Shown: positions 36,510 to 63,104, counted from the first letter of the stretch. The stretch: 64,000 nt of DNA from a bacterium (GCA_016931965.1 JAFGDT010000041.1:18851-82850), one strand, 5' to 3'. Notes: a model not told the origin generated them from the letters alone. Numbers and translations are program-made.

Positions 36510-36590
36510 ATTCTCAACCCTATTAGCCAGGTATAAAAAAACGGAACACGATATAAACATCGCATCCCGTCCCAGACATTTTCCATTCCG

Positions 36591-36842: not shown

Positions 36843-36850
36843 TCTTGAAA

Positions 36851-36855: not shown

Positions 36856-37252
36856 AATCAATCGAATCTTTTTCAAACTTTAAAGATAATAAAACAAACG
36901 ACTCAAAGCAAGAAAAAATTCAAGTTTACAATTCATTTTTATCTTCTTTACTCCCAGCAGCACAGCTACAAGACGACTGCGGGTGGCAACCATTTTCTCG
37001 ATATCGGCAAAATGGTCAGTTACTTTTTCTTTCTCGTTCCAGTGTTCTACGTTGGAACGAGAAGAGTACTCCTCTCCACTCAAGTTGATGGCATGCTTGA
37101 AGCAGTGCAATGATTGCCCTGGATTCCCTTGTCCAGGGCAAATAACTATGGGGCTTCTGACCCATAAGACAATACAGCATCAAGTTTTTGAATTTGGGGA
37201 GGATACCTTGTTGATCGTTCATGGGGGCTTTTTGCCGCTGAACGAATTATTT

Positions 37253-37276
37253 GGAGGGCTGAGCCCTCCCTTTTTT
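37253..37276 (+). terminator. Plus-strand intrinsic terminator with no upstream plus-strand gene, so possibly the end of an ncRNA
   Basis: GGAGGGC-tga-GCCCTCC forms a 6-7-bp GC stem, followed by C and then TTTTTT. Confidence 0.45.
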
Positions 37277-37483
37277 ACGCCTAGGGGTATAGGAGCCTGT
37301 CCAAGAACCCCAAAAAAGCGTTATAATATCATAGATTTTTGAATATATAAAGATTTCATATTAATTGTTACCAAAAATATTCCAATTTTTTCTAGTTCTT
37401 AGACAAGCTCCATAGCCCATTGGCGATCAGAACTTGAGTCTGGTGCAACGCTTATTCGTTTAGGCTTGTTTTATAATATTTTA

Positions 37484-38278
37484 TCATTCTGTGTATTTGA
37501 ATATATAACCTTTATGCGAATTTCGTTTTCCGTGCAAACAACTATTGATATGACTGAAATCTAAATTCAAATACCTAGCACATTGTCTTTGTGTAAGCCA
37601 CTCACCTATATATTTTTCATTTTTAAAAACTAGAAAAGATTTAGCTCCGCGTTGAATTGAATGAATCTTTCTATTTTGGGGGTCAGATAAATACTTACGC
37701 ATTTCTTCTGCTGTTTTCTCTCTTTCAGATTCTTTATTATATCGCATTAACATAAATTTTGAATGTTCTTTTGCTTGTTCAGGATTATCTTGGTGAGCTT
37801 TTTTATTTGCTAAAGATTGCATTCGCCTATTTTCTGGATTTTGGAATAACTTTTTCCTTATTTCGGAATTTCTTTTACACCATTCTTCGTCATACTTAAG
37901 ACCATAAGTTCCTTCCCCACCTAAAGTCAGATTGTAACCATTTGTAAAACTATCATAAAATCGGATATATTTTTTTTCTAGTTCACAGAGTTCTTTCCAT
38001 TCTGTAGCTCTGTCAATTATTTCCCAACTGATATTTTTAGAATCATATTTTCTTATTGCATCGTGAAATGGTGTCCTTGAACCCTTTTTTACACTTCGTA
38101 AATGAATTCGGATTCTTTCTTTTAGCGTTGTTATTGTAATACCAATATAGATTTTTCCACTGGGTGAAGTGGCTTTATATACTATTCCATTAATTGATTT
38201 TTTCTTTTCCATAAATTTACTTACAAGCCTAACGATTATTTCTGCGGCGCGCCAAACCGACGGGTGACCATTATTCAT
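37484..38278 (-). CDS. GIY-YIG homing endonuclease of I-TevI/Seg-like architecture: GIY-YIG domain, NUMOD3-like repeats and a NUMOD1-like HTH
   Basis: GIY-YIG core NGIVYKATSPSGKIYIGITITTLKERIRIH...FHDAIRKY...LEKKYIRFYDS..NGYNLTLGGEG. C-terminal tail CARYLNLDFSHINSCLHGKRNSHKGYIFKY matches the ...NG+RK.A.GY.W.Y DNA-binding motif of homing endonucleases. The start may be the internal ATG at 38212 (MEKKK). Confidence 0.75.
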   Translation of the reverse strand: MNNGHPSVWRAAEIIVRLVSKFMEKKKSINGIVYKATSPSGKIYIGITITTLKERIRIHLRSVKKGSRTPFHDAIRKYDSKNISWEIIDRATEWKELCELEKKYIRFYDSFTNGYNLTLGGEGTYGLKYDEEWCKRNSEIRKKLFQNPENRRMQSLANKKAHQDNPEQAKEHSKFMLMRYNKESEREKTAEEMRKYLSDPQNRKIHSIQRGAKSFLVFKNEKYIGEWLTQRQCARYLNLDFSHINSCLHGKRNSHKGYIFKYTE

Positions 38279-38287
38279 TTTCGTGTG

Positions 38288-38307
38288 GCACTGCTTTTAA
38301 GCAGTGC
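38288..38307. repeat. Perfect 20-bp palindrome GCACTGCTT-TT-AAGCAGTGC, 10 bp upstream of the GIY-YIG start codon
   Basis: Read directly from the sequence. A degenerate copy GCATGCTTGAAGCAGTGC lies at 37091..37108, and a related GCTTTTAAAAGC palindrome at 39759..39770. Confidence 0.6.
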
Positions 38308-38405
38308 TTTAATTATTTGTTCATTCAACACGATATTTTACAAATATCACACTGACCAGGGCACCCTGCGAATTGATGCGGTAGTTATGTAAAGTTATTT
38401 GACTA

Positions 38406-39500
38406 TCAATCAAGCAACTCCTTGAATATTTTATAATCATGATCCGAAAGACTGAATTTGGCATTAAGCTTATTCAGCATTTGGCCCGAGTTGAACCAGG
38501 ATATGAATGTATCGACATTGCCGGCAAACCCTCTTGCACATTTGTCAGATATCGTCTGGTAATCCTGAACTTCTGGGAACAATTTTAAAGTCTGATGAGT
38601 TGCAGATGGGAAATCGAAACCTTGCTTCATGTAATACAAAACACTATAAATATGCCGCAGACGAATTTCTAGATGACTTTCAAATGGAATATTGGCAATT
38701 TTTTCTGACGCTGATAAATTTTCAAATGATTGATGATCAAGTCTTTGTGTTTGATGATGGATTATTCTTCTTCTGGGTGTTCTTTCCGGTTTTTCGACCG
38801 CGCCAATTTGTTGTTTTATTTCTTCTCTCTCTGAAATCTCAATGTGAACTTGCTGCAGTGCCTCAGAGAAAGTCTCGTCATCGGTATCTGGAAATTCATT
38901 TCTCAGGTAACCCACTACTTTCTGTTTTACTTCGAATGAAGTTAATTGTTGAATTAGTGCGATGACTTCCCGTTTTTTGTTAAATTTATCGAGCTTGTTT
39001 TTTAAATATTCATTATACCTATTTTCTTCTATACTACTCTTGTTGAAAATACCTATAAAATTTATGCCTTGCTCTGATCCTTTTTCAAAGTCAATTTTTT
39101 CTAACAATATTGGGTCGGTGTGAGGGTTCAATGGTCCATCATAAAAAATTCTAAGATCTGGTCCAATTAAAAACCCGAAATCGGATTTCATTTGCCTCAT
39201 ATAGGATCTCAGTTGTCCTATTACATAATCACGTTTTATATCCTCTGCAGGCCTCTTGACCTCCACGACAATTAGACATTTCCTATCATTACCATAAATA
39301 ATTAAATCCGGACGAAGCGTGCCCTCACGCCCAAGTTGCACTTTCGGTTGTCTTTCTATCTCATTCTTATATTCCCGCCAACCGAGGACCTCAATGGCTC
39401 TAACCACTTGATTTTCAAAATCCCTTTCAGACAAATTTTGCTTGATATTTTCCGATAACAGAAAACAAATCTCATCCCATTTTTCAGAATTACAATTCAT
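38406..39500 (-). CDS. PD-(D/E)xK nuclease-fold protein with an HsdR-N-like N-terminal domain and an unrecognised C-terminal domain of about 240 aa
   Basis: GTLRPDLIIYGNDRKCLIVVEVKRP matches the D...(E/D)xK motif of the N-terminal domain of type I restriction R subunits (PF13588-like). The rest has no match I recognise. The gene is AT-rich like the adjacent GIY-YIG gene. Confidence 0.6.
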   Translation of the reverse strand: MNCNSEKWDEICFLLSENIKQNLSERDFENQVVRAIEVLGWREYKNEIERQPKVQLGREGTLRPDLIIYGNDRKCLIVVEVKRPAEDIKRDYVIGQLRSYMRQMKSDFGFLIGPDLRIFYDGPLNPHTDPILLEKIDFEKGSEQGINFIGIFNKSSIEENRYNEYLKNKLDKFNKKREVIALIQQLTSFEVKQKVVGYLRNEFPDTDDETFSEALQQVHIEISEREEIKQQIGAVEKPERTPRRRIIHHQTQRLDHQSFENLSASEKIANIPFESHLEIRLRHIYSVLYYMKQGFDFPSATHQTLKLFPEVQDYQTISDKCARGFAGNVDTFISWFNSGQMLNKLNAKFSLSDHDYKIFKELLD

Positions 39501-39672
39501 AATTTGCCTCTGATTCTCTCACATAACACAGGTTTATCCACCCTATATGCATTACATATGCTTTTCAAAATAATCTTTGAATTTGAATACAATCATTTCC
39601 TTCAAATCAAGACACATGGAGCCAACTTGCCCCCTTCATCTATTTCTTTGATAGCCATTTTTCTGTTGAAAT

Positions 39673-39780
39673 GCAGACAAGAATCGGGAATCGATTGAAA
39701 GAATATTTTATTCCGCATGATTTAATACACAAAAATCAGAAAATCAATCAAAACTTCCGCTTTTAAAAGCAGACAAGAAT
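39673..39780. repeat. Two direct copies of GCAGACAAGAAT, 96 bp apart, upstream of the PD-(D/E)xK gene. The second abuts the palindrome GCTTTTAAAAGC at 39759..39770
   Basis: Read from the sequence: 39673..39684 and 39769..39780, with a 12-bp perfect palindrome at 39759..39770. Confidence 0.45.
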
Positions 39781-39970
39781 GCACAATAGTCATTCTCCCT
39801 CTAAAAGCAAAGTCAATGGCTTTAAAAATAACGACTGGAAATGGTTATCTGTATCTTAAGCCCGTTTGATTTTACAAATTGTGAAATTTTTACCTTGACA
39901 TTCGATAAAACCTTTTATATTATGTAATATAAATTCTTTAAATCCATAAAATCAAAAAGAGCCGATTTGA

Positions 39971-40264
39971 ATGAACACCCATCAGAAAGATAAAATGAAA
40001 AGCAGCGATTATCTCTCAGAAGAAGAACAGCAAGAGAGCAAGCAACAACTGTTTTTCTACAATATATGTCTCATTGCGGGCAGTGTCCTTATCCTATTTT
40101 CTCTCATTTATCTTTTACAACATTTAGGCAACAATTCGGTTTACTGGATTGGATTTTTGGGGTTATTCTGTGCAATTCCTTTCTTCATCATATACGGAAT
40201 CGGCATGAAATCGATCAAAAACAAAACGAATTCAAACCCCAAAAACCAGAAACATAAAGCATAG
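39971..40264 (+). CDS. Small membrane protein (97 aa, two transmembrane segments), hypothetical
   Basis: Acidic N-terminal SEEEQQESKQQ stretch, then two hydrophobic helices and a basic C-tail. Confidence 0.45.
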   Translation: MNTHQKDKMKSSDYLSEEEQQESKQQLFFYNICLIAGSVLILFSLIYLLQHLGNNSVYWIGFLGLFCAIPFFIIYGIGMKSIKNKTNSNPKNQKHKA

Positions 40265-49170: not shown

Positions 49171-50118
49171 TTAAGACGACTTCCTCCCTTGTAATTTTTT
49201 CTCCATAATCGGCTTCAATCTGTCCATCAAATCGACTCCAATCAGCTGCCCAAAAAATCGAATCAAAACCCATAGGACAACCAGTGGAACGATGATCGTT
49301 TTAAGAATAAACACCACAATGAGGTCGATAATGTAATCAATATACCCCGAGATGGTGTTTTTCAGATTCTGTATCCTCTCCTCAATATTGGCAGCCATTT
49401 CAATACTATTGAAAAAATTTTTAATCCTCTGGATCAGATTGGGATCGCTTTCGACATCGGGCAGACCGGTTTCATCCTCATCAATCTCCATACTGGCTTC
49501 TTCGAGCGATTGCGCCGCCCTTTCATATTGATCCTCCAGGAAAAGCGAGTCTATCTGACTGGTAGCCAATGCAACGAGTGGAATGCAGAATCGGACCAGT
49601 ATGGCAATCACCATGAGCCTGTATCCAAAACCCGCAAAATTCCATTTGAACAGATTGGACAGCCAGATATCCACCAAAATCGCCAACAACGACAGAGAGA
49701 GCAGAACTTTGAATCCCAGCCAGATCCCGATCGTCATCAGTATCTTCTGTATCCCCAGAGATGTGGTGCTGGCCAGAATCACCCAGGAAAACCGCTCGAT
49801 CAGATCATTGAGGGGATCCAATATTTCACCCACAGCGATGGTGATCCCGACTCCTGCCGGCGATACGGCCACATCGCTGGCCTGTACGACAGAAATAATG
49901 GCATTGATACCGCGAACCACGGCGAAAGTATAGAGTGCGTTTTTCATGGTTTTATCAAAATAGCTATTGGCTTCACTGTCGATTTTGTTGAGAAATGTTT
50001 TTTCAACGAGGAGATGGTTGAGCAGTCCGGTATAGGCCAAAATGCCAACCAGGATAACAATGATACTGATGATGATTTTTTTCAAAAGAGGACGGATCAC
50101 GATATCTCTACTCCTCAA
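49171..50118 (-). CDS. Hypothetical integral membrane protein
   Basis: 315 aa with five or six transmembrane helices and an acidic cytoplasmic loop EEASMEIDEDETG. Confidence 0.45.
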   Translation of the reverse strand: MRSRDIVIRPLLKKIIISIIVILVGILAYTGLLNHLLVEKTFLNKIDSEANSYFDKTMKNALYTFAVVRGINAIISVVQASDVAVSPAGVGITIAVGEILDPLNDLIERFSWVILASTTSLGIQKILMTIGIWLGFKVLLSLSLLAILVDIWLSNLFKWNFAGFGYRLMVIAILVRFCIPLVALATSQIDSLFLEDQYERAAQSLEEASMEIDEDETGLPDVESDPNLIQRIKNFFNSIEMAANIEERIQNLKNTISGYIDYIIDLIVVFILKTIIVPLVVLWVLIRFFGQLIGVDLMDRLKPIMEKKLQGRKSS

Positions 50119-50620
50119 CCGAACGGAATTGTTAAGTATGAATAAATATCTCAGAAAATAATAATAAATTTACAGTTGATATGCAAGCAAAAAGAGGCTA
50201 AAAGCAAACGAAACCTGATAAAAATGTAAACATCAAATGTTCCACAGAAGTTTGATTCTTGTAAATTTTGAATTTTCCCTTGAAATTGATAAAATGATTT
50301 ATTATAATTTGATGATTTCATCCCATTATCCAAACAAAAATCATCGTTGGAAATTGAGTATAAGACTTTTAATAGATGAAACAATAAATACGCAGAAAAA
50401 ATTCTATCCCGAGAAATTCTATTTGCTCCCACGGACAAGGATTGCACATAAAAAAAGCCTTTGGGAGAACATACGGACTACAATTTTAACTCACCAGCCA
50501 GACTATCAAAACGGTACATCCTGATACTGATTACATGCTTTTTACAAAGTAAATATCAACAAGAGATATCAAAAAACATGGTATAAAAGTTCAACAAATG
50601 AGATTTTATAAGGAAGAAAA

Positions 50621-52249
50621 ATGACAAGAAAAATACTTCTTATAATGGGTTTTATAGGGACAGCCTTCTTTTTACACTGTCCAACCAGTATAAACAGTAT
50701 CGAACAGTGGAATATTTTTGAAACCCAATTTACCAGCTCGAAAAGATATGAGAACCCTGTACAGGATGTGAAAATCGAAGTCACGTTCGTGTCACCCAGT
50801 CAGGATGTACGGACTTTTCTTGCATTCTGGAATGGAGACGATGAATGGCGGGTGCGGTTTAGTCCTGATGAAATCGGAAGGTGGATTTACTTGACATCCT
50901 GTTCTGATAGTTCAAACGGAGGACTGCATCAACAGTCCGGGACTTTTCAATGCGTGGCATATACTGGCGATAATGCTCTATATCAGAACGGTGAACTGCA
51001 GCTTTCTCAAAACAGGCGTTATTTTGTTCATCAAAACGGCAAACCCTTTTTCTTTATGGCGTGCACAGCCTGGTGCGGTCCAGCCCTTGCTGCATACGAT
51101 GATTGGCAGGTTTACCTGCAGGATCGGGTTGATAAAGCATTCACAGCCATTCAGTTTGTGATGACCCAGTGGCGTATGTTTGACAGGGACGCCGATGGCA
51201 ATGAAACCTTTACCGGAATAGAAAAAATAGAAATCAATCCGGCTTACTTCCAGCGGATGGACCGCTATGTGGACGCCATCAATGAAGCCGGTTTGTTAGC
51301 TGTCCCTGTCGTCTTGTGGGCCATAGCCGGAGATACCAATCCCGGATACATCCTGCCCGAAGATCAGAAAATCGTACTGGCTGAGTATATTGTCGCCCGA
51401 TATGGCGCCCACCAGGTCCTCTGGTTTCTTGGGGGTGACGGGAATTATGAAAACGAGCGTGCAGAACCCTGGAAAAAGGTGGGCCGTGCTGTCTTCAAAG
51501 AGGACCAACACAGGCTGGTTTCCATGCACGCGCGGGGGAGAAGCTGGGTTGGTGATGAATTCCGAGGAGAGACCTGGTTTGATTTCATCGTCTACCAGAG
51601 CGGACATGGAGACGATGAGGCTACATTCCGCTGGTTAACCCAGGGACCTCCTGCAACCCAATGGAATGAAGAACCCATGTTGCCGGTGATTAATGCCGAA
51701 CCGAATTATGAAGCGCACAACGGTTACACATACCGGAAAGTGCACAATGACCATGCTGTGCGAAGAGCAGCCTACTGGAGTCTTCTGGCATCCCCGACCG
51801 CAGGTGTGACCTATGGAGGGCAGGGTATCTGGGGATGGCATACAGAAGTACAACTACCGGCGAATCATCCATCAGCAGGACTGGGTTCACCCTGGTATCA
51901 GGCAATCGATCTGCCAGGGGCCTTCAGCATGCAAGAACTGGTCGAGCTGTTTACTTCAATTGACTGGTGGCGTCTGAAACCGGCTCAGAAACTGATTGTC
52001 AGCCAGCCGGGCGAGAAAGATGCTTCAAAATATGTCGCTGCAGCCAAATCGGAGGACGGAACTGCGGCCGTTATCTATATGCCTGAAGGTATGCCGATTC
52101 AAATACGAACCGAATTGCTGAACGTCACCAAAGCCCGATGGTATCATGCCCGGACGGGAGGATGGGTGGATGGAGGAGAAGTGATTCAACCCAGACAGAC
52201 ATTCGAACCGGCTGACCGCAACGACTGGGTACTGGTATTCAGCCGGTGA
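50621..52249 (+). CDS. Secreted putative glycoside hydrolase with a DUF5060 N-domain, a DUF4038 (GH140-like) TIM barrel and a collagen-binding-like C-domain
   Basis: Signal peptide. The DUF5060-like segment is FLAFWNGDDEWRVRFSPDEIGRWIY. GKPFFFMACTAW and VLWFLGGDGNYENE resemble DUF4038. Confidence 0.6.
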   Translation: MTRKILLIMGFIGTAFFLHCPTSINSIEQWNIFETQFTSSKRYENPVQDVKIEVTFVSPSQDVRTFLAFWNGDDEWRVRFSPDEIGRWIYLTSCSDSSNGGLHQQSGTFQCVAYTGDNALYQNGELQLSQNRRYFVHQNGKPFFFMACTAWCGPALAAYDDWQVYLQDRVDKAFTAIQFVMTQWRMFDRDADGNETFTGIEKIEINPAYFQRMDRYVDAINEAGLLAVPVVLWAIAGDTNPGYILPEDQKIVLAEYIVARYGAHQVLWFLGGDGNYENERAEPWKKVGRAVFKEDQHRLVSMHARGRSWVGDEFRGETWFDFIVYQSGHGDDEATFRWLTQGPPATQWNEEPMLPVINAEPNYEAHNGYTYRKVHNDHAVRRAAYWSLLASPTAGVTYGGQGIWGWHTEVQLPANHPSAGLGSPWYQAIDLPGAFSMQELVELFTSIDWWRLKPAQKLIVSQPGEKDASKYVAAAKSEDGTAAVIYMPEGMPIQIRTELLNVTKARWYHARTGGWVDGGEVIQPRQTFEPADRNDWVLVFSR

Positions 52250-52293
52250 TTGACCGGTAACCCTGAAGTCGACACGGATGAAAAACTTGAAGA

Positions 52294-54111
52294 TTGGAAT
52301 ATGAAATGAAACATGGTTTAACAACGGGTTTTTTAATATTGCTTTTCGGAATGGAATGGGCCAACCCCGTCAAAGTAGCAGAGATCAGCGGAGAATTAAA
52401 AACCTGGTATAAAATCACGCTGACATTCACAGGTCCTGAGACAGATGAGCAGGCCAATCCGAATCCATTCCTGGATTACCGTCTGAACGTCACCTTTACA
52501 CGGGAGGACAAATCCTATTTGGTTCCGGGATATTTTGCAGCAGATGGCAATGCCGCCAACAGTTCGGCGGATTCCGGGAATCAATGGCAGGTTCATTTTG
52601 CACCGGACCAGACAGGGATATGGAAATACGAAGTCTCCTTTCGCAGGGGCGAAAATATTGCCGTAAGTGACGATCCGAATGCGGGCCGCAGTGCCGGTTT
52701 TATGGATGGTGAAACCGGTTCTTTTACGGTAGAGCCCACCGACAAAACCGATCGCGATTTCCGGGGCCGGGGTCGTTTGGAATATGTGGGGGAGCATGTT
52801 CTGCGCTTCGCTGAAACAGGGGAATATTTCCTGAAAGCCGGCGCGGATGCCCCGGAGAATTTCCTGGCCTATCAGGATTTTGATGGCGATTTCAAGAACG
52901 ACGGACACCACGACGAACTCGTGAAAACCTGGCAGCCGCATGTCAGGGATTGGCATTCCGGTGATCCTGCCTGGCAGAACGGCAAGGGCAAAGGGATCAT
53001 CGGCGCCATCAACTATCTGGCCTTGCAGGGGATGAATGTCTTTTCCTTTTTGACATTAAACATAGCCGGGGATGACCAGAATGTTTTCCCGTACACGTCG
53101 TACGACGAACGGGTGCGGATGGACATATCCAGACTGGCCCAATGGGAGATTGTCTTTGAGCATGCCGACAGACTGGGCCTGTACCTCCATTTCAAAACCC
53201 AGGAAGCCGAAAATCAGGAACTGCTGGACGGCGGTGCGCTGGGTGTGGAACGCAGGCTCTACTACAGGGAGCTCATCGCCCGATTCAGTCACCATCTGGC
53301 ATTGAACTGGAATCTGGGCGAAGAAAACGGTGCCTGGGGAAATCATGAAGGACAAACGACAGCAGAACGCCGGGCCATGGCGGGATATTTCTGGGAGCAC
53401 GATCCCTATCAGCATCATATCGTGATACACAACGGACAATCCTTTGATGATCTGTTGGGGGACAGATCGGCATTGACCGGGGTTTCCGTACAGACCAACA
53501 GGCCGGATTTTAGCCAGGTACACGATGCCATACTGCACTGGGTAGATGAATCGGAAAAAGCGGGAAAACCATGGGTGGTGGCCATTGATGAACCCGGTGA
53601 TGCACAGCATGCGCTGATTCCGGATCAAGAGGATCCAAACCACGACAATGCCCGTCAAAATGCACTCTGGGGTATGTTTATGTCCGGCGGAGCCGGTGTG
53701 GAGTGGTACTTCGGATATGCCCATCCGGAATCCGATCTCACCTGTCAGGACTGGCGCTCCCGGGCGAATATGTGGGATCAGTGCAGGTATGCACTGGAAT
53801 TTTTCAGGGAGTACAACATCCCGTTTACGGAAATGACCAACGGGGATGAGCTCACAACGGATCAGAACGATTACTGCTTTTATAAGGCCGGTGAGCTGTA
53901 CCTGGTTTACATGAAATCTGCCGGGGATAATCGAATTGACCTGGAAGCTCATAACACGACTTTTCAGGTCTATTGGTTCAATCCCCGCTCGGGAGGAAAG
54001 TTAGAGAGAGGAACCGTCCACTCCATATCCGGACCAGATGCGCAGAATATAGGCAATCCGCCTGAAGCACCTGAACAGGACTGGCTGGTGGTGATTCGCA
54101 GGGAAGAGTAA
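52294..54111 (+). CDS. Secreted putative glycoside hydrolase with a DUF5060 N-domain and a GH-A-clan (cellulase-like) TIM barrel
   Basis: DUF5060-like WQVHFAPDQTGIWKYEVSF. LHFKT...NWNLGEENG resembles a GH5-like acid/base region. Signal peptide present. Confidence 0.55.
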   Translation: MEYEMKHGLTTGFLILLFGMEWANPVKVAEISGELKTWYKITLTFTGPETDEQANPNPFLDYRLNVTFTREDKSYLVPGYFAADGNAANSSADSGNQWQVHFAPDQTGIWKYEVSFRRGENIAVSDDPNAGRSAGFMDGETGSFTVEPTDKTDRDFRGRGRLEYVGEHVLRFAETGEYFLKAGADAPENFLAYQDFDGDFKNDGHHDELVKTWQPHVRDWHSGDPAWQNGKGKGIIGAINYLALQGMNVFSFLTLNIAGDDQNVFPYTSYDERVRMDISRLAQWEIVFEHADRLGLYLHFKTQEAENQELLDGGALGVERRLYYRELIARFSHHLALNWNLGEENGAWGNHEGQTTAERRAMAGYFWEHDPYQHHIVIHNGQSFDDLLGDRSALTGVSVQTNRPDFSQVHDAILHWVDESEKAGKPWVVAIDEPGDAQHALIPDQEDPNHDNARQNALWGMFMSGGAGVEWYFGYAHPESDLTCQDWRSRANMWDQCRYALEFFREYNIPFTEMTNGDELTTDQNDYCFYKAGELYLVYMKSAGDNRIDLEAHNTTFQVYWFNPRSGGKLERGTVHSISGPDAQNIGNPPEAPEQDWLVVIRREE

Positions 54112-54145
54112 AAAGCATCCGTTATGTTTAGATCAAAGGTCAGGA

Positions 54146-55786
54146 ATGATGAAACGTCTACATGTTCTTTTCGTCCTATTGGCATTTTTGATGTGTACTT
54201 TAGACATCCTGTTTGCAGATGAAATTGCAGAAGGTAAATTGTATTCGGTGATCGAACTCGCATTCGAAGGTCCCCTGCAGACCCCGAAGGACACACCGGC
54301 CCGGGACATCGATTTCTGGGTGGAATTTCAGCACGAAAGCGGTTCCCCTGTTCACCGGATATATGGATTCTGGGATGGGGACGGCAGGGGCCATGCAACC
54401 GGTAATGTCTTCAAGGTCCGGTTTTGCCCGACTGAAACGGGAAAATGGATCCTGTCCGAGGTCCATTCCAATGCAGCGTCATTGGACAATCAGCATCAGG
54501 GAGATCACATCACTGTGGGTCAATCGGACCATCCCGGCTTCTGGATGGCGGATCCTGCAAGTACGGGAAAGCGGTGGTATCGGCGTTCGGACGGTTCGCA
54601 TCTCTACATCATCGGAAACACGCACTACAGTTTTCTTTCAGGGTACATGAAAGGCGGAATGCCCTCAGGCAATACAATTGACGGCGATATTCGCGGCAAT
54701 GCCGATTTTTTTAAAAAATTGCGTTTCGGACTCTCAGGCGATTATTACCTCAATCCTGTGGAGAAGCCCTATTTTGATGACGAGGGGCAGCCAACCGATT
54801 GGGGAGACTATGCACACCGTCCCAATCCCCAGTGGTTTCACAATCGGGTTGATCTGGCTGTGCAGACCGCCTATGAGGTGGATTTAATTACCGACATTAT
54901 CCTTGCCGGACCGGACAATGAATGGGCCCGCTCCACATTGCGGGCGAAATACAACGGAGGGGATCCGACGCCTTTTCTGAAATATATCGCCGCCCGCTAT
55001 GGGAGCTATCCCAATGTCTGGATCTGCCTGTGCAACGAGTACGAGATCCGTGAGCCTGTCTACAGCGAAAAAGAAATCGCCGAATTCGGTCGGATCATAC
55101 TTAATTACCTGCCCTATCAAACACCGCTCAGCGTGCACGCCACGCCGAATACACTGTGGGCAGATGCATTTGAAGACCTGCCGCCCTGGAACGACCACAT
55201 CATCATTCAAAAGAAACTTCGCCACCTTTCCCCTGCCGCAGATGTCATCCAGAATGTCTGGGAAAATCAAAACCATCCCTTGTACAAACCGGTGATCAAC
55301 GACGAACTGAGTTATGAGGGTGATGGGGACAGCCACAATGAAGGCGACTCCATTGAATCGCATCTGGGTGCCTTTCTCGGAGGAGGATACGGAACCACCG
55401 GCGAAAAATCCGCCAGCAAAGAAGGCCAGTATTTTAAGGGAAATTTCAATGCCGATGAACATACGGCTGCGGACAACCTGAAATATCTTCGGGAAGTGAT
55501 CGACCAGCACATCACTTTCTGGAAAATGGCTCCAGGCCGGGACATTTTTTCCAATCTGGCCGAGGGATTCCGCGGGATGGCCTGGCCGGGCCATGAATAT
55601 GTCCTGGGAACCAATGAAGCACATCAAGGTCTGACGGCACAATTGCCATCGGGTTCATGGAAGGTGACCCGGTATGATATGATCAACAAGGTCGAAACGA
55701 CATTGTCGGAAAATGCTGTAGGCCGATTTGTGTTTGATTCTCCGGGCAGTCGTGCTGTCTTGTTTCATTTCAAATACAATCAGTGA
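54146..55786 (+). CDS. Secreted putative glycoside hydrolase with DUF5060 and DUF4038-like domains (third paralog)
   Basis: Signal peptide. FKVRFCPTETGKWIL, HLYIIGNTHY and WICLCNEYE, plus a C-terminal beta-sandwich. Confidence 0.55.
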   Translation: MMKRLHVLFVLLAFLMCTLDILFADEIAEGKLYSVIELAFEGPLQTPKDTPARDIDFWVEFQHESGSPVHRIYGFWDGDGRGHATGNVFKVRFCPTETGKWILSEVHSNAASLDNQHQGDHITVGQSDHPGFWMADPASTGKRWYRRSDGSHLYIIGNTHYSFLSGYMKGGMPSGNTIDGDIRGNADFFKKLRFGLSGDYYLNPVEKPYFDDEGQPTDWGDYAHRPNPQWFHNRVDLAVQTAYEVDLITDIILAGPDNEWARSTLRAKYNGGDPTPFLKYIAARYGSYPNVWICLCNEYEIREPVYSEKEIAEFGRIILNYLPYQTPLSVHATPNTLWADAFEDLPPWNDHIIIQKKLRHLSPAADVIQNVWENQNHPLYKPVINDELSYEGDGDSHNEGDSIESHLGAFLGGGYGTTGEKSASKEGQYFKGNFNADEHTAADNLKYLREVIDQHITFWKMAPGRDIFSNLAEGFRGMAWPGHEYVLGTNEAHQGLTAQLPSGSWKVTRYDMINKVETTLSENAVGRFVFDSPGSRAVLFHFKYNQ

Positions 55787-55871
55787 TTAGCTTTGTGTAT
55801 CCCGTTGCACTTTGTATGAGTGTGTGAAGCTTAACCAAGAATCATAAAAACGCACATATGGGAGCGACGAA

Positions 55872-57554
55872 TTGATGAACAAATACAATGAAAAAGTAAA
55901 ATTTCCAATTTATACTGTTCTAATTGGATTGCTGCTTTGCGGTTGTCAAAATCAATCCGCCGTCAATGCGAAGAAAATGAGTGCCGATGTCATTGTTTAT
56001 GGAGGCACCTCGGCGGCTATGACAACGTCTGTTCAGGTTGCCCGGATGGGAAAGTCCGTCATCATCGTTTCACCCGACAAACATCTTGGAGGTCTTTCCT
56101 CATCCGGTTTGGGATTCACCGATACCGGGGACAAAAGCGTCATCGGAGGTCTATCCAGGGAATTTTATCACCGCATTTATGAACATTATCAAAAGCCGGA
56201 ATCCTGGACATGGCAGGAAAAGGAAGCCTATGGCAACGTCGGTCAGGGAACACCGGCAATCGACGGCGAAAACAGAACCATGTGGATATTTGAACCCCAT
56301 GCCGCCGAAAGTGTTTTCGAAGATTTTGTGAGGGAACATCATATCCAAGTGATCCGTGATGAATGGCTGGACAGAGAACACGGCGTCGTCAAAGAGAACG
56401 GAAAAATCCGATCGATTACGACCCTCAGCGGCCAAATATACGAGGGGAAAATATTTATCGATGCCACATACGAAGGCGACCTGATGGCTGCCGCCGGTGT
56501 AAGTTATTGTGTCGGCAGAGAAACCAATTCCCTTTATGATGAGGAATGGAACGGCGTGCAGACAGGAGTGCTTCACCATGGCCATCATTTTAGCAACAGG
56601 AATATCAGTCCCTATGTCGTGCCGGACAATCCCGCCAGCGGGATCTTGCCCCGCATTTCAGCTGCGGATCCCGGTAAAAAAGGCGAAGGAGACGATAAAA
56701 TACAAGCTTACTGCTTCAGGATGTGTTTGACCCAAAACGAGGAAAACCGTGTTCCCTTCGAAAAACCGGATGGATATGACCCCTCACAATATGAGCTTCT
56801 GATCAGGATATTTGAGTCCGGCTGGCGGCAAACGTTCAATAAATTCGATCCCATCCCCAATCTAAAGACCGATGTCAACAATCACGGCCCGTTCAGTTTT
56901 GACAACATCGGCATGAATGATGATTATCCGGAAGCATCATACGAAAGAAGAAAAGAAATCATCAGGGAACATGAAACCTATCAAAAGGGATTGCTCTATT
57001 TTATTGCCACGGATCCCCGTGTGCCGAAAGAGATCCAGGATGAAATGAACAAATGGGGACTGGCCAGGGACGAATTTGTGGATAACGGCCACTGGCCGCA
57101 CCAGTTGTACATTCGCGAAGCCAGAAGAATGATCGGAGAGGTTGTGATGACCGAAAATGAAATTATGGGAAAGAATCCCGTGAAACAGTCCATCGGCATG
57201 GGATCCTACACCATGGATTCCCACAATGTGCAGCGGTACATCACGCCGGAAGGATATGTACAAAATGAGGGAGACATCGGCGTGAGCCCTCCAGAACCCT
57301 ATCAGATTGCGCTGGGCACCATTCTACCCAAAAAAGAGGAGTGCACGAACCTGCTTGTTCCGGTGGCCGTTTCAAGCTCGCACATTGCTTTTGGATCGAT
57401 TCGCATGGAGCCCGTTTTTATGATACTGGGTCAGAGTGCCGGAACCATCGCGGCGATGGCAGTAGAAAAAAATATCGGGATTCATGACATCCCTTATGAT
57501 GGAATCAAAATGCAATTGATCGAAGACGGTCAAATTTTGGAAATAAACAGATGA
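55872..57554 (+). CDS. FAD-dependent oxidoreductase lipoprotein of the PF12831 (FAD_oxidored) type
   Basis: Lipobox LLLCGC. Dinucleotide motif DVIVYGGTSAAMTTSVQVARMG. This type is frequently encoded in polysaccharide-utilisation loci. Confidence 0.65.
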   Translation: MMNKYNEKVKFPIYTVLIGLLLCGCQNQSAVNAKKMSADVIVYGGTSAAMTTSVQVARMGKSVIIVSPDKHLGGLSSSGLGFTDTGDKSVIGGLSREFYHRIYEHYQKPESWTWQEKEAYGNVGQGTPAIDGENRTMWIFEPHAAESVFEDFVREHHIQVIRDEWLDREHGVVKENGKIRSITTLSGQIYEGKIFIDATYEGDLMAAAGVSYCVGRETNSLYDEEWNGVQTGVLHHGHHFSNRNISPYVVPDNPASGILPRISAADPGKKGEGDDKIQAYCFRMCLTQNEENRVPFEKPDGYDPSQYELLIRIFESGWRQTFNKFDPIPNLKTDVNNHGPFSFDNIGMNDDYPEASYERRKEIIREHETYQKGLLYFIATDPRVPKEIQDEMNKWGLARDEFVDNGHWPHQLYIREARRMIGEVVMTENEIMGKNPVKQSIGMGSYTMDSHNVQRYITPEGYVQNEGDIGVSPPEPYQIALGTILPKKEECTNLLVPVAVSSSHIAFGSIRMEPVFMILGQSAGTIAAMAVEKNIGIHDIPYDGIKMQLIEDGQILEINR

Positions 57555-57600
57555 TCATCATAAAATAAATTACTTTCATACAAAAAAGGAGATTCCGAAC

Positions 57601-59673
57601 ATGAAACGTTTCACAATCTTTATCTGTCTGTTCATCTGCTCCGCAACTTCCCTGTTCGCTCAAAAGCGAGCCTTTACCCTCGAGGATCTCTATCGGATTC
57701 AGGGAATCGGCGATCCTCAAATTTCCCCGGAAGGCGACAGAATCGCATTTACAGTCACAAAATACAATCTGAGAGAAGGAACCCAAAACACGAATATCTG
57801 GATGATGCAGGCCGACGGATCCGACCCCAGGCAGATGACCCGAAGTGACCAATCGGACGGTCACCCCCGCTGGTCTCCCGATGGAACAACTTTGATGTTT
57901 CTTTCCAGCAGAAACGATGACAGTCAAATCTGGCTGTTGCCTGTGACGGGTGGTGAACCGTACAAGCTGACGGACATCTCCACATCCATTTCCGATCCTA
58001 TCTGGACAGCGGACGGAAAATCCATTGTTTTTGCCTCAGAAGTATTTCCCGAATACGGGGCGGTCGATTCATTAAACAAAAGGGATCTGGAATCCATGGA
58101 AGAAGGCCCTGTCCATGCCCATATGGCCGATGAACTCCTTTACCGCCACTGGACCAGCTGGGATGACGGTCTCAAAATCCATACGCTGATCATCGACGTG
58201 GATTCGGGTGAAATGCGCGATTTGACGCCCGGACCTTATCATGCCCCCCGCTTCTCTCTGGGAAATCGGGGTTTTCAGGTCTCGCCGGACAGCAAAGAAC
58301 TCTGCGTGGTTTCCGATCACAGTGCGGATCCGTGGTCATCCACCAATGCGGATTTGTGGGTGACTCCGCTGGACGGGGGTGAATACATCAACATCACCGC
58401 TGACAATGCAGCTTACGATGGAGATCCCCTCTATTCCCCGAATGGTCAGTACATTGCCTACCGGAAACAACTGATTCCCCGTTATGAAGCAGACCGGTTC
58501 CGTCTGGCGATCTATGATCGGGAAACACAAACACACCGCATTTTAACAGAACCATTTGATTATTGGGTTGAGGACTTCAGATGGTCACCGGACAGCAAAA
58601 CGATTTACTTCATAGCCACAGTCCAGGGACATCTTCCCCTTTATTCAGTGGATATCCGCAGCGGGAATATCACCCTTGTCTTGGATGTCAAAACCATCAA
58701 TAACTTCGAAATCTCTCCGGATGGGAAATGGATGGCTATTACCCGACGATCCATCGGCGAGCCCACATCACTGGTTCGTGTGCAGACAGACGGGAAAGAT
58801 CTGAAGCGGTTGGAATTTTTCAATGAAACCCTTGAAAATGAAGTGGACATCCGTCCTGCAGAAGAGATGTGGGTTGAAGGTGCAGAAGGCCACCCGGTCC
58901 ATGTCTATATCATTAAACCGCACGATTTTGATCCAACCAAGAAATACCCCACTATTATGAATATCCACGGAGGTCCACAGAGCCTATGGCTGGATTCATT
59001 CCGCGGAGACTGGCAGGTTTACCCGGGTGCGGGATATGTGTTGGTTCTGCCCAATCCCCACGGCTCAACAGGTTACGGACAGGATTACACGTCTGCCATT
59101 TCCAAAGACTGGGGAGGCCGCGTTTATGAGGACATCATGAAAGTGACCGATGCCGTAAGTGAACTCCCCTATGTGGATGCAGACCGCATGGGTGCCATGG
59201 GGTGGAGCTATGGTGGGTATATGATGATGTGGCTGCAGGGGCACACGGATCGCTTTAAAGCCATGGCTTGCATGATGGGAGTTTATGATTTAAAGTCCAA
59301 GTATGGTGCTACTGAAGAACTCTGGTTCCCCGAATGGGATCTGGGGGGACAGCCCTGGAATTCTGAGTATTATGAAAAGTGGTCGCCATCCAATTTTGTC
59401 GAAAACTTCCAAACACCCTGTCTGGTCATCACCGGTGAGCTCGATTACCGCGTTCCCTATACACAGAGTCTGCATTTCTTTACCGATCTGCAAAAAATGC
59501 ATGTGACTTCGCGGTTGATCGTTTTTCCGAATGACGGTCACTGGCCCAATTATGTACGATCCATGCCCCTCTATTACAATGCCCATCTGGATTGGTTTCA
59601 CAAATATCTGGGAGGAGGTTCGGCACCGTGGGACATGACAGACATGATCAGAAATCGCCATTTTGTAGAATAG
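57601..59673 (+). CDS. S9-family serine peptidase (prolyl oligopeptidase/DPP-like) with an N-terminal beta-propeller
   Basis: Signal peptide, SPDG/SPDS propeller repeats and the nucleophile elbow GWSYGGYM. Downstream Asp and His lie in VFPNDGHW. Confidence 0.8.
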   Translation: MKRFTIFICLFICSATSLFAQKRAFTLEDLYRIQGIGDPQISPEGDRIAFTVTKYNLREGTQNTNIWMMQADGSDPRQMTRSDQSDGHPRWSPDGTTLMFLSSRNDDSQIWLLPVTGGEPYKLTDISTSISDPIWTADGKSIVFASEVFPEYGAVDSLNKRDLESMEEGPVHAHMADELLYRHWTSWDDGLKIHTLIIDVDSGEMRDLTPGPYHAPRFSLGNRGFQVSPDSKELCVVSDHSADPWSSTNADLWVTPLDGGEYINITADNAAYDGDPLYSPNGQYIAYRKQLIPRYEADRFRLAIYDRETQTHRILTEPFDYWVEDFRWSPDSKTIYFIATVQGHLPLYSVDIRSGNITLVLDVKTINNFEISPDGKWMAITRRSIGEPTSLVRVQTDGKDLKRLEFFNETLENEVDIRPAEEMWVEGAEGHPVHVYIIKPHDFDPTKKYPTIMNIHGGPQSLWLDSFRGDWQVYPGAGYVLVLPNPHGSTGYGQDYTSAISKDWGGRVYEDIMKVTDAVSELPYVDADRMGAMGWSYGGYMMMWLQGHTDRFKAMACMMGVYDLKSKYGATEELWFPEWDLGGQPWNSEYYEKWSPSNFVENFQTPCLVITGELDYRVPYTQSLHFFTDLQKMHVTSRLIVFPNDGHWPNYVRSMPLYYNAHLDWFHKYLGGGSAPWDMTDMIRNRHFVE

Positions 59674-59711
59674 GAAAATCAACTCCACAGCGGCAAGAGA
59701 CTCTGCAGTGT

Positions 59712-60581
59712 GTGAAGTTCATAAAACCGTATGAAAGGAAAGTCATAAAAAGAATCATCATAAGAACGATTTTAGCACTGGTTTTCTTCATGATGTGCCG
59801 ACCCTGTGAGATCAAATCTCAGGTCGAATTGCCTCCCAAAGAAAATTTCCATCTGTTTTTGCTGGCCGGTCAATCCAACATGGCAGGCCGGGGAAAATTG
59901 ACAGAAAAAGATACGCAAGTACATCCAAGGGTTTATGCACTGTCGTGGAATGGGAAATGGATACCTGCTGCGGATCCGATTCATTACGACAAGCCAACGG
60001 CCGGTGTCGGACTGGGAAAATCATTTGCGATTGCTCTGGCGGAACGGGACAGCAGCATAGCCATTGGCCTCGTGCCCGCTGCCTGCGGTGGTTCACCGAT
60101 TGCCATCTGGGAACAGAGGGTCTATTTTGACCAGACAGACAGTTATCCCTATGATGATGCCATTCAGCGTATCCGCTATGCACTGAAAGACGGTATGCTG
60201 AAGGGGATCCTGTGGCATCAGGGTGAATCTGACAGCAATCCGCAGCGCGCCGGAGAATACAAGGGGAAACTGAAAAACCTGATAGAGCGTTTCCGCAAGG
60301 ATTTGAATACCCCGTCATTACCGTTCATCATCGGACAATTGGGACAGTTCCCAGAGAGTCCATGGGATGATTTTAAAAGACTCATCAATGAAGCCCACGT
60401 TACAATAGCCGATGAAATGGATTTTGTCGGGTTTGTTTCTTCAGAGGATCTCTCCTGCATGGAAGATAACATTCATTTTAATTCTGAGTCGTTGAGACAG
60501 TTCGGACAACGATATGCAGAAATATATATGGAAATAAAGAAACACGATACCTCAGAAAATAAATCTGCCGCGCAACCATAA
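59712..60581 (+). CDS. SASA/DUF303-family carbohydrate esterase (sialate O-acetylesterase-like SGNH hydrolase)
   Basis: GQSNMAGRG motif, then WHQGESD. The start is uncertain. The ORF track begins at 59592, inside the peptidase gene. I propose the GTG at 59712, which gives the signal peptide MKFIKPYERKVIKRIIIRTILALVFFMMC. The ATG pair at about 59790 is an alternative. Confidence 0.65.
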   Translation: MKFIKPYERKVIKRIIIRTILALVFFMMCRPCEIKSQVELPPKENFHLFLLAGQSNMAGRGKLTEKDTQVHPRVYALSWNGKWIPAADPIHYDKPTAGVGLGKSFAIALAERDSSIAIGLVPAACGGSPIAIWEQRVYFDQTDSYPYDDAIQRIRYALKDGMLKGILWHQGESDSNPQRAGEYKGKLKNLIERFRKDLNTPSLPFIIGQLGQFPESPWDDFKRLINEAHVTIADEMDFVGFVSSEDLSCMEDNIHFNSESLRQFGQRYAEIYMEIKKHDTSENKSAAQP

Positions 60582-60583
60582 AT

Positions 60584-62728
60584 ATGATGATGCCGATACC
60601 AACAAAAGGAAACAGGATGAGGAAAAGAATCTATCTTATTATCATTCTTTGCTTTATTTGTTCTTTCGTTCAAGTAGTGTATTTCCATGCACAGCGTGCT
60701 GAAAGAATCTCTCTTCACAAAGTACCGCTCTGGGGCCAATTCGAGATGTCCTGCCGGAACAGCCATGCCTATCACGATCCATTTCGTGATGTTTCTCTGG
60801 ATGTAATCTACACACGTCCGGACAGCAGTACAATCCAATTCCACGGATTTTATGTAGGAGATCAATTGTGGAAATTCCGCTTTATGCCGGATCAACTGGG
60901 TGTATGGACTTACAAAGCAACTTTTTCGGATGGACAGGCCGGAAAAGATGGCACCTTCGATGTCGTACCCTCCGATTTACACGGACCTATTGTGAAAGAT
61001 GCATCCAACCCGAGATGGTTCGGATTTGCAGACGGCAGCCATGTGTTGCTGAGGAGCTTTCATTGTGGAGACCGCTTTTTTGCAGAAAACTGGCCGGAAC
61101 AGGAACGGCGGGCATTCCTGGATTGGGCTGAGATCCACGGATACAACCTGTTGTCCGTTGCCAGCCACTATCTCAACCGGGATGTACCCGGACGGGGCCA
61201 AGGATGGGCGACACCTGATTTATGGGATGACGAAGAGCGAAAGGTCAATCCTGCTGAGTATGATCAAATGGAAGTCATACTCAGAGACCTGGCTGAAAGA
61301 AAGATTATGGTATTTCCCTTTGCCGGTTTTTTCGGACAGAGTTCAGATTTTCCCCGGAATCCCACGGATCAGGCATTTTACATCCGTTACACCCTCTCAC
61401 GCATCGCCTGTTTCTGGAACCTGCTTTTCAACGTGGCCGGTCCGGAGCCGGATGCCAAACCGGATGAATTTTACGGATCCATGACCATGGACGATGTGGA
61501 CCACCTGGGATCGTTGATCGACAGTCTGGATATTTTTAACCACCTGATCTCCATTCACACACGACCCGACCGTGACGATCCTTTCTCGAATGAGGAATGG
61601 TCCGGATATGCAACACTCCAGGGTGCTCGGGGAACCGACTGGCAACAGGTTAACCGGTTCATGCTGGATAACCATACCGGTCAAAAACCGGTCTATGCGC
61701 ATGAGGTGTTCTGGCCGGGCAATTCACTACATCAGATTTCAACCCTGGAAGAGGTTCGGAAAAAAGCCTTTGTCCTTCTTTTTTCTGCGGCAACCATCAA
61801 TCTCGGCGATATGAACGGGAATTCCTCATCAGGATTCAGCGGCAGCCTCGATTTATCGCAATGCAATCAGGATCTGCACAACACAATGAAAGGGGTGTGG
61901 GATTGGTTTGAAAGGCTACCTTTTTATCGGATGTCCCCACAGCAGAATCTTGTTTCCAATGGCATTTGTCTTGCTCAGGAGGGCATCTGTTATGCCGTTT
62001 ACCTGCCAGAGGGTGGCATAACGACACTGAACCTCAAAAGTGCAAAGGGACAATATACTTTAAGATGGTACAATCCCCGGATCCGATCCTATCAGGAATC
62101 AGATAACCTTTATAATGGAAACCAGCCATTGACCTTGGAGTCTCCCTCGGATGAAGACTGGGTAGTCCTACTCAACCGCACTCAAATCCCTATTCACAAA
62201 CAAATCAATGGTATTATCTCAATTGAAGCGGAGCATTATGTGGCCGGGACAGGTTGGTGTGAAGTTGAAGGGATCAGTGGAACAGCCATGCGGGATCCAG
62301 ACGACAGCGATTCCGGGCACCTGGTCTACGAAATTGAATTTAATCAAGCTGGCGATTACTGGGTCTATGGATTAATGCGCCGGACAGATCTCGAACATGC
62401 CGACAGAGCCAATGACACGTTTTTTGACCTGAACGGTTGGAAGCTCTACGGCATCGACGGAAAAACCCGCCCGGATGGACTGCGTTGTACACACACGGAT
62501 TTCACATGGCAGAGCGGACCGAAAGGGCCCGGCCCGCACACGCCGCGTGATATCATTGGCCAGCCTGTTTATGTGCACATTCCGGGTCCGGGCAGGTATT
62601 CGGTTCACATCACCAAGCGAAGCATCGGGTTCGAAATCGACAAGTTTGTTTTTCTTCCGGAAAACATTGCCCCACAGAACAGCGGTCCGGATGAAACGCT
62701 TTTCATTGAAGACAATAATGAATATTAG
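60584..62728 (+). CDS. Secreted putative glycoside hydrolase with a DUF5060 N-domain, a GH-A-like barrel and a C-terminal carbohydrate-binding-like domain (fourth paralog)
   Basis: Signal peptide. FHGFYVGDQLWKFRFMPDQLGVWTYKATF is DUF5060-like. The C-terminal 180 aa, IEAEHYVAGTGW...GWKLYG, look like a lectin/CBM beta-sandwich. Confidence 0.55.
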   Translation: MMMPIPTKGNRMRKRIYLIIILCFICSFVQVVYFHAQRAERISLHKVPLWGQFEMSCRNSHAYHDPFRDVSLDVIYTRPDSSTIQFHGFYVGDQLWKFRFMPDQLGVWTYKATFSDGQAGKDGTFDVVPSDLHGPIVKDASNPRWFGFADGSHVLLRSFHCGDRFFAENWPEQERRAFLDWAEIHGYNLLSVASHYLNRDVPGRGQGWATPDLWDDEERKVNPAEYDQMEVILRDLAERKIMVFPFAGFFGQSSDFPRNPTDQAFYIRYTLSRIACFWNLLFNVAGPEPDAKPDEFYGSMTMDDVDHLGSLIDSLDIFNHLISIHTRPDRDDPFSNEEWSGYATLQGARGTDWQQVNRFMLDNHTGQKPVYAHEVFWPGNSLHQISTLEEVRKKAFVLLFSAATINLGDMNGNSSSGFSGSLDLSQCNQDLHNTMKGVWDWFERLPFYRMSPQQNLVSNGICLAQEGICYAVYLPEGGITTLNLKSAKGQYTLRWYNPRIRSYQESDNLYNGNQPLTLESPSDEDWVVLLNRTQIPIHKQINGIISIEAEHYVAGTGWCEVEGISGTAMRDPDDSDSGHLVYEIEFNQAGDYWVYGLMRRTDLEHADRANDTFFDLNGWKLYGIDGKTRPDGLRCTHTDFTWQSGPKGPGPHTPRDIIGQPVYVHIPGPGRYSVHITKRSIGFEIDKFVFLPENIAPQNSGPDETLFIEDNNEY

Positions 62729-62738: not shown

Positions 62739-63104
62739 ATGTTTAAATTTGTATTATCCATTTTGATGATAATTACCCAGTTGGTGATGTCACAGGAAAC
62801 TGAAAAAGTACTGGTCATATCAATGGACGAATATCAGGACCGCTGTGAAGCTGTCTGGACCGCCCAGATGGTCGGTCATTTTTTTGGCATATCCCCCTTT
62901 GAGCATAACCAGGCCGCCATGAAATGGGTGGATGATTATTCCGAAGAAATCCAAGAACATATTCGGGAAAACGGAGGTGTGGGATACGTCGATGATGACT
63001 GGTACTATGAAATAGTCAACCTCCAGGCCTTGGAAAAATACGGCCCCGATATGACACTTGAGGAACTGGGGCAGCAGTGGATAGAAAACAATGTGGGTGT
63101 CTGA
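62739..63104 (+). CDS. Short secreted protein of 122 aa, possibly a truncated and degenerate ADP-ribosylglycohydrolase-like N-terminal fragment
   Basis: The ATG at 62739 has a GAAAGG ribosome-binding site and a signal peptide. DRCEAVWTAQMVGHFFGISPFE has the same spacing as the ARH N-terminal motif DR.........VGDALG.P.E, but the metal-ligand Asp is replaced by His. The ORF stops after 122 aa. Confidence 0.3.
   Translation: MFKFVLSILMIITQLVMSQETEKVLVISMDEYQDRCEAVWTAQMVGHFFGISPFEHNQAAMKWVDDYSEEIQEHIRENGGVGYVDDDWYYEIVNLQALEKYGPDMTLEELGQQWIENNVGV

Follow-up and report, generated by a model that had tools for sequence, protein, structure and literature searches.

The loci closest in design to the one described here are the polysaccharide-utilization loci (PULs) of Bacteroidota and the generic clusters of carbohydrate-active enzyme (CAZyme) genes of other phyla, where co-directional genes for exported glycosidases and an esterase likewise lie behind one promoter. 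Among individual enzymes, the point of reference is BT_1012 of Bacteroides thetaiotaomicron (structures 3KZS and 5MSY), a D-apiosidase of glycoside hydrolase family 140 (GH140) that belongs to the PUL for rhamnogalacturonan-II (RG-II). To our knowledge, cleavage of D-apiosyl linkages is the sole activity known for GH140. Here, we analyzed a 64,000-nucleotide stretch of bacterial DNA (GCA_016931965.1, JAFGDT010000041.1, positions 18851-82850; the whole stretch is called the window), in which positions 50621-62728 of the plus strand hold seven co-directional open reading frames (ORFs), g1 to g7, that code for exported proteins (Table 1). On balance, we read this locus as a mosaic particular to its lineage, in which genes for exported hydrolytic enzymes are probably transcribed together, and not as a conserved dedicated system.

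Table 1. Features of the g1-g7 cluster and its surroundings, in window coordinates; "ORF extent" gives the full reading frame and "Start" the best-supported start codon
Feature	Coordinates	ORF extent	Strand	Start	Description
Promoter-like site	50280-50308		+		Putative; best sigma-70-like match, TTGAAA-17-TATAAT, 11/12, inside the AT-rich leader 5´ of g1
g1	50621-52249	50621-52249	+		Predicted exported GH140-type glycosidase; DUF5060, DUF4038/Apiosidase and C-terminal beta-sandwich; 542 aa
g2	52306-54111	52294-54111	+	ATG 52306	Exported; DUF5060, GH5/GH140-like TIM barrel and beta-sandwich; 601 aa
g3	54146-55786	54146-55786	+		Predicted exported glycosidase; DUF5060 and distant DUF4038-like domain; 546 aa; rare subfamily
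g4	55875-57554	55872-57554	+	ATG 55875	PF12831 FAD-dependent oxidoreductase-like lipoprotein; 559 aa
g5	57601-59673	57601-59673	+		Exported S9 serine peptidase, DPP5-like, with N-terminal beta-propeller; 690 aa
g6	59712-60581	59592-60581 (opens inside g5)	+	GTG 59712 (ATG 59790 picked by a gene caller)	Predicted exported SGNH/SASA-fold acetyl esterase, CE6-like; 289 aa
g7	60617-62728	60584-62728	+	ATG 60617	Predicted exported glycosidase; DUF5060, distant DUF4038-like domain, beta-sandwich and C-terminal module of ~170 aa; 703 aa
g8	62739-63104		+		ORF of 121 aa with signal peptide, 10 bp after g7; truncated gene for an ADP-ribosylglycohydrolase-like exported protein
Divergent gene upstream of g1	49171-50118		-		Multi-pass membrane protein of 315 aa, no family match; also adjoins the locus in the close relative
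MacAB-TolC-type efflux operon	16796-22870		-		MacB-MacB-ABC ATPase-HlyD-OEP

The layout of the locus fits one transcription unit. With the best-supported start codons, the gaps between consecutive genes from g1 to g8 are 56, 34, 88, 46, 38, 35 and 10 bp; the 34-88 bp that separate the seven main genes are essentially what the initial annotation of this DNA had reported (3-120 bp). A 500-bp AT-rich non-coding leader precedes g1 and contains the region's best-scoring sigma-70-like match, a putative g1 promoter by its match to the consensus only. Terminator-like matches were all intragenic, with none between genes, and Rfam recognized no RNA element in the leader or elsewhere in the window. Given the shared strand, the short gaps, the single promoter-like site and the lack of intergenic terminators, g1 to g7 are probably co-transcribed, as the initial annotation had proposed. 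The ORF listing also bore out its statement that seven consecutive plus-strand genes encode a signal peptide or a lipobox: every g1-g7 product begins with a basic n-region that leads into a hydrophobic stretch. An eighth co-directional ORF, g8, had been overlooked; it follows g7 and is itself followed by an SDR gene. A Logan contig was 100% identical to the window across the last 20 kb.

In contrast to Bacteroidota PULs, the 64 kb contain no SusC/SusD pair, TonB-dependent receptor, sensor or regulator, or catabolic genes. Among all ORFs of at least 180 aa in the window, none matched the Plug, TonB_dep_Rec or SusD families, and no sugar regulator was found adjoining the cluster or elsewhere in the window. 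The nearest transporter-like genes, one of the major facilitator superfamily (MFS; 28599-29912) and the MacAB-type efflux operon, are more than 20 kb away. The initial annotation had thus correctly noted the absence of SusC/SusD, of a TonB-dependent transporter and of a regulator, although what it took for a departure from Bacteroidetes loci is unsurprising, since the closest named relatives of the cluster genes come from Marinimicrobia and KSB1, where a Bacteroidota-type PUL is not necessarily expected. The locus is therefore not a PUL but a CAZyme-type gene cluster, and it differs from both PULs and other CAZyme clusters in that its gene content is not kept between genomes.

That last point carries our reading of the locus. 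In the sole close relative compared (GCA_975965155.1), the upstream flank is 85% identical in nucleotide sequence up to window position 50360, just beyond the promoter-like site, such that the leader up to that point is also conserved. Past this position the relative has a 131-nt g3 remnant (79% nucleotide and 70% amino acid identity), an ORF of 465 aa, g4 (87%) and g5 (90%), and then unrelated fatty-acid genes; g1, g2, g6, g7 and g8 are absent from the site. The g5 counterpart (89.6% identical by tblastn) falls in the same 90% cluster as g5, and the g4-g5 spacing is the same. Positions 8292-9885 of the relative's locus cover the g3 remnant, of 61 aa, and the 465-aa ORF, which is glycoside hydrolase-like, has a C-terminus resembling the g7 beta-sandwich, and gave no significant Pfam match (only DUF6298 below the cut-off, at E 0.005). 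To judge from these sequences, this looks like a cassette-like replacement of the hydrolase genes in front of g4-g5.

More distant genomes also failed to show the set. We compared 80 loci centered on g4 orthologs (one per species, 63-72% identical to g4) from Bacteroidota, Verrucomicrobiota, Planctomycetota, Calditrichota and Acidobacteriota, and in none of the 80 did phmmer or profile hidden Markov models of three of the families detect a homolog of the DUF5060 hydrolases g1, g2, g3 and g7 within 10 kb of g4. None of the 84 loci centered on g2 orthologs (L003 and L089-L171) holds g3, g4, g6 or g7. At three loci, relatives of g7 were seen either alone in a housekeeping context or next to an ABC sugar transporter. 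The same gene set is thus not kept together in related or unrelated genomes, and the synteny comparison goes against the earlier idea of one functional unit working step-wise, because the genes are scattered. Decay is also evident within the cluster: g8 can be aligned (5.8e-11) to residues 9-109 of a PF03747 protein of 571 aa that is encoded directly upstream of a g4 ortholog at another locus (L011, 8275-9990), and, as the next gene lies just 129 bp away, the remainder of the gene is gone, making g8 a truncated gene remnant.

We propose the following model. Transcription of g1 to g7, together with the decayed g8, would start from a promoter in the AT-rich leader, and the products would be exported by the Sec pathway, with lipid anchoring at least for g4. 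Their site of action would be the periplasm or the cell surface, where they plausibly take side branches and acetyl groups off complex glycans and also trim peptides. The four glycosidases of clan GH-A type, drawn from four DUF5060 subfamilies, would each remove a different sugar; the CE6-like esterase g6 would strip O-acetyl groups that block the glycosidases; the DPP5-like g5 would do the peptide trimming; and the flavoprotein g4 would presumably contribute an oxidative step on a sugar or glycan. Uptake and catabolism of the products would be encoded elsewhere in the genome. In this mosaic, g4 and g5 would form the locally stable core around which glycosidase and esterase genes are gained and lost, a turnover suggested by the g3 remnant in the close relative and the g8 remnant here.

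Several points weigh against this model. The g3 remnant in the close relative points to a larger cluster in the ancestor of the lineage, in which case the set lasted some time and may be selected together, and just one close relative was compared. The 80 and 84 comparison loci are best-scoring matches, often on short contigs and with mechanically called ORFs. On two metagenome contigs from one study (L106 and L107), a g2 ortholog is immediately preceded by a g1-like gene, so a functional link between g1 and g2 is possible. A sigma-70 consensus scan may not suit this organism. Finally, base composition speaks for a mosaic, the cluster genes having a GC content of 0.46-0.52, compared with 0.43-0.476 for the housekeeping genes of the window, but as evidence of horizontal transfer this excess is modest and no proof.

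The first alternative to weigh, the view of the initial annotation, is that the cluster is a dedicated, non-canonical polysaccharide-utilization operon, whose seven enzymes would act step-wise on one highly branched, acetylated plant or algal glycan. Candidates would be RG-II, apiogalacturonan or a glycoprotein, and the genes for uptake would lie outside the cluster. The operon-like layout, the export of all products with what appear to be intact catalytic residues, the GH140-type g1 with its known relatives being apiosidases, and the presence of the acetyl esterase g6 would all be expected of such a system, and it would also accommodate the recurrence of the g1-g2 adjacency and the g3 remnant, which indicates that the larger cluster is not brand new. 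However, the set is kept in neither the close relative nor the g4-, g2- and g7-centered loci, g2 is normally found in a different operon (see below), the close relative retains g4-g5 without these glycosidases, one member, g8, has decayed, and none of the pectin-locus markers GH28, GH78, GH106 or polysaccharide lyases was found in the window. Given the scattering of its genes, we consider an operon for a single substrate unlikely, at perhaps one chance in a few.

The conservation of g4-g5 raises a second alternative, that this pair alone is the functional unit, a dipeptidyl peptidase and a flavin oxidase for scavenging of peptides or amino compounds, with the glycosidase and esterase genes being unrelated passengers that landed downstream of a strong promoter, where the site tolerates insertion. 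The adjacency of g4 and g5, with unchanged spacing, is the only part of the cluster conserved in the close relative, and further peptidases that are exported or large are encoded in the window, namely a tricorn-like S41 protease and an M3 peptidase. Yet no close S9 relative was found beside g4 orthologs in the 80 loci, which gave three weak, non-adjacent matches. The neighbors of g4 are mainly carbohydrate-related (sulfatases, GH78 enzymes, GDSL esterases and sugar transporters), which associates g4 with the metabolism of glycans, not of peptides. In all, the immediate neighbors of g4 belong to 105 Pfam families, led by PF12831 paralogs (11/95), sulfatases (7), GH78 rhamnosidases (4) and GDSL esterases (4). 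We therefore regard peptide scavenging as the primary role of the locus as improbable. Independently of this question, two loci show five tandem PF12831 paralogs around the g4 ortholog (L043, 3077-15411; L049, 1789-15471, Cyclobacterium).

The g4 protein matches PF12831 over nearly the entire profile (4e-110, 369 bits, positions 1-415 of 416) and has an N-terminal dinucleotide-binding motif, DVIVYGGTSAA. Its lipobox (LLCG-C24) includes a cysteine, Cys24, that is invariant across 22 family members, and members from KSB1, Bacteroidota and Ignavibacteriales are 70-87% identical. No solved or characterized relative of g4 was found by sequence or profile; the profile search of the PDB matched the dinucleotide-binding motif only. 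The AlphaFold2 model, built from a shallow and overly similar alignment, is poor, with a predicted local distance difference test (pLDDT) score of 52 overall and below 50 for the substrate domain. The literature searched contained no functional study of DUF5060, of PF12831 or of the exported PF12831 family of g4, and yielded no functional information on PF16586, on ManDH5 or on FAD oxidoreductases in connection with PULs. Two g4 homologs (P0155 and P0206) bear the UniRef name 'Xanthan lyase', apparently an unsupported propagated annotation; we rejected a derivation of this name for PF12831 from Paenibacillus alginolyticus XalA, because that enzyme is PL8-like.

The peptidase g5 carries Peptidase_S9 (3e-58) and PD40 domains, and the motifs of the catalytic triad are present (S536 in GWSYGG, D615 and H647). 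It matches the NCBIfam equivalog model for Dpp5 (NF053518) at 1.8e-140 and 469.6 bits, below the 900-bit cut-off, and is therefore a DPP5-related S9 peptidase and not an equivalog of DPP5.

Turning to the four DUF5060 proteins, g1 matches, in addition to DUF5060 and Collagen_bind_2 (PF12904), the Apiosidase/DUF4038 domain PF13204 from end to end (4e-76, profile positions 1-319 of 320), and it shares this catalytic domain with BT_1012 (9e-32) and with the metagenomic apiosidase 8T9W (6.5e-27). Like g1, BT_1012 has the PF12904 C-terminal beta-sandwich and a catalytic Asp (acid/base) and Glu (nucleophile); its catalytic pair is Asp187 and Glu284 (PMC4032388), with which D273 and E360 of g1 align exactly at the residue level. 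The two proteins differ in that g1 has an additional N-terminal DUF5060 Ig-like domain, the alignment with BT_1012 starting at g1 residue 121, and in that g1 lies outside any SusC/SusD PUL and without other RG-II enzymes nearby. By these sequence measures g1 qualifies for GH140, with the activity being predicted, and is the only protein of the cluster that can confidently be called GH140-type. The relationship of BT_1012 to g2, g3 and g7 is far more distant, and these three have Glu, not Asp, at the acid/base position, a substitution found in 17% of PF13204 members at the first catalytic position (PMC4032388). The initial annotation, which had listed three DUF5060-DUF4038 proteins and one DUF5060-GH5-like protein, thus holds at the level of families, but g2, g3 and g7 cannot be placed in GH140.

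For g2, Pfam gives DUF5060 and Collagen_bind_2 with no catalytic-domain match, and no relative in the PDB was found by sequence. The AlphaFold2 model (pLDDT 81) shows a complete TIM barrel, for which Foldseek returned 4N0R (4.8e-23; template-modeling (TM) score 0.62-0.73), the GH5 enzyme ManDH5 (2.5e-22; TM ~0.6) and the GH140 structures 8T9W and 5MSY (~1e-13). The first of these, BVU_0362 of Bacteroides vulgatus, a structural-genomics 'putative glycoside hydrolase', is thus the closest solved relative of g2 by fold and has the same three-domain architecture, but identity is just 15-16% and the match conveys fold, not activity. The second, the beta-mannanase of Dictyoglomus thermophilum (9GPA and related entries), supports the 'GH5-like' label for the g2 barrel; with 14% identity and no match at the sequence level, its substrate specificity is not transferable. 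In the model, E339 and E340 directly follow strand 333-336 and E429 follows strand 424-428. These residues, within the motifs N-W-N-x-G-E339-E340 and D-E429-P-G, are invariant in 33 sequences of the family and, as modeled, occupy the acid/base and nucleophile positions of clan GH-A.

The g2 family is large. Homologs 60-75% identical number more than 8000 and come from Marinimicrobia, Planctomycetota, Gemmatimonadota, Bacteroidota and other phyla; no solved structure of the family exists and the literature searched held no paper on it. Its usual setting is an operon of another kind. Downstream of g2 orthologs, on the same strand, there is typically a tartrate-dehydrogenase-like gene (IsoDH; TIGR02089, 447 bits, the cut-off being 470), with further partners being a PF04199 cyclase-like gene, a DUF1537 kinase-like or transaldolase-like gene, an MFS transporter of the galactonate family (anion-type), and a Gfo/Idh/MocA oxidoreductase. 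At least three of these cassette families are present in 19 of the 35 g2-centered loci that have at least 5 kb of downstream sequence, examples headed by a g2 ortholog being L090 (10001-18430) and L091 (10001-17415). The cassette proteins lack signal peptides and would be cytoplasmic, whereas the g2 ortholog itself is secreted. The best NCBIfam matches of the cassette are to tartrate-dehydrogenase-like and D-threonate-kinase-like models, below their cut-offs. A D-apiose pathway was considered but is not claimed here, as the known ApnO-OiaK-OiaX genes differ from these matches.

This gene content points to a so far undescribed pathway, with an acidic or a branched sugar as its substrate, the acidity being read only from the transporter subfamily and the tartrate-dehydrogenase-like enzyme. 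More speculatively, the g2 family could constitute an undescribed glycoside-hydrolase family that, with its cassette, defines an unrecognized route by which such a sugar is first released from a glycan of the environment and then catabolized; the cluster in the window, where g1 lies directly upstream of g2, could then be a depolymerization module for the same glycan, and g4 a second exported glycan-processing enzyme. We offer this combined proposal tentatively and with low confidence.

The remaining two DUF5060 hydrolases are distant DUF4038-like relatives. g3 has DUF5060 and a partial, weak match to PF13204 (5e-10), and its relatives amount to 595 cluster representatives at E<=1e-3 among 1.84 billion. 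g7 has DUF5060 and Collagen_bind_2 with no PF13204 match, although many relatives of ~50% identity carry precomputed PF13204 matches. BVU_0362 (4N0R) is the closest solved relative of both by sequence (4e-12 for g3 and 9e-11 for g7) and has the same three-domain architecture. In g3, the Glu of an NE motif, E298, is invariant and that of an NDE motif, E387, at least 90% conserved, and the pair aligns with that of the g7 family, E277 and E363, which is invariant in 27 sequences. The C-terminal module of g7 (residues ~536-714, window ~62190-62728), which is N-terminal in some family members, is probably a carbohydrate-binding accessory. Long g2 orthologs have a PF17829-like tail to which this module is weakly similar (1e-8 to 1e-6), and in other g7 relatives a fusion with a PF00144 beta-lactamase-like domain is seen; the proteins concerned in these comparisons include P0354, P0344, P0360 and P0372.

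Profile-profile alignments (hhalign) connect the g7 family to those of g1 (4.5e-29), g3 (1.3e-26) and g2 (8e-31), and in these alignments the acidic residues of the four families fall 0-3 positions apart. All four proteins are thus predicted, from sequence and from the g2 model, to be retaining glycosidases of clan GH-A type with the carboxylate pair after beta4 and beta7. Pairwise identity among them is ~20%, which points to four old, separate subfamilies and not to recent paralogs; the earlier description had spoken of four divergent paralogs. That some of them are non-catalytic binding proteins or decaying genes, leaving the cluster partly non-functional, is very unlikely: g8 is clearly truncated, g2 and g7 lack a Pfam catalytic-domain match and the g3 family is rare, but all four ORFs are full length relative to their relatives, each keeps its family-invariant acidic pair, and g2 has a complete TIM barrel in a confident model.

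The conserved acidic pairs of the DUF5060 proteins and the catalytic motifs of g5 and g6 together support the earlier view that these are enzymes. In g6, a strong match to SASA (PF03629, 3e-64) stands as annotated, and the motifs GQS55NM and D252-x-x-H255 are intact. The sialate sense of that name is not supported, however. Whereas the sialate 9-O-acetylesterases from which the Pfam name derives are merely distantly similar (1e-4 to 4e-3), g6 is far closer to acetyl esterases of carbohydrate esterase family 6 (CE6) type, namely 1ZMB of Clostridium acetobutylicum ('acetylxylan esterase related', 1e-39) and 2APJ of Arabidopsis (8e-24), which share the GQSN serine and the D-x-x-H motif. By these sequence comparisons g6 is predicted to be CE6-like rather than sialate-specific.

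The rest of the window is of housekeeping character, with genes for CarAB, MetK, AhcY, RF-1, an OtsAB fusion, RluD, ferritin, the efflux operon and several peptidases. The tricorn-like S41 protease (1085 aa) is encoded on the plus strand at 814-6156, followed within that interval by a 682-aa ORF with no Pfam match. Positions 36000-40000 have a GC content of 0.35-0.38, compared with 0.44 window-wide, and hold two minus-strand ORFs, one for a PDDEXK/HSDR_N-like nuclease (38406-39500) and one whose product has an I-HmuI NUMOD-like domain (37484-38278); this region may be a foreign or mobile islet.

Our data describe an ordinary CAZyme-type cluster without a conserved set of partners, and not a new kind of polysaccharide-utilization system. 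Its value lies in the dark enzyme families to which it points, the hydrolase family of g2 and the exported PF12831 flavoprotein family of g4. The g2 family, which is very large, extends across phyla and is reproducibly linked to the acid-sugar cassette, is the most novel part; the g4 family is equally conserved and recurs beside sulfatases, rhamnosidases and esterases. If one or the other were characterized, thousands of genes from sediment and marine metagenomes would gain an annotation.

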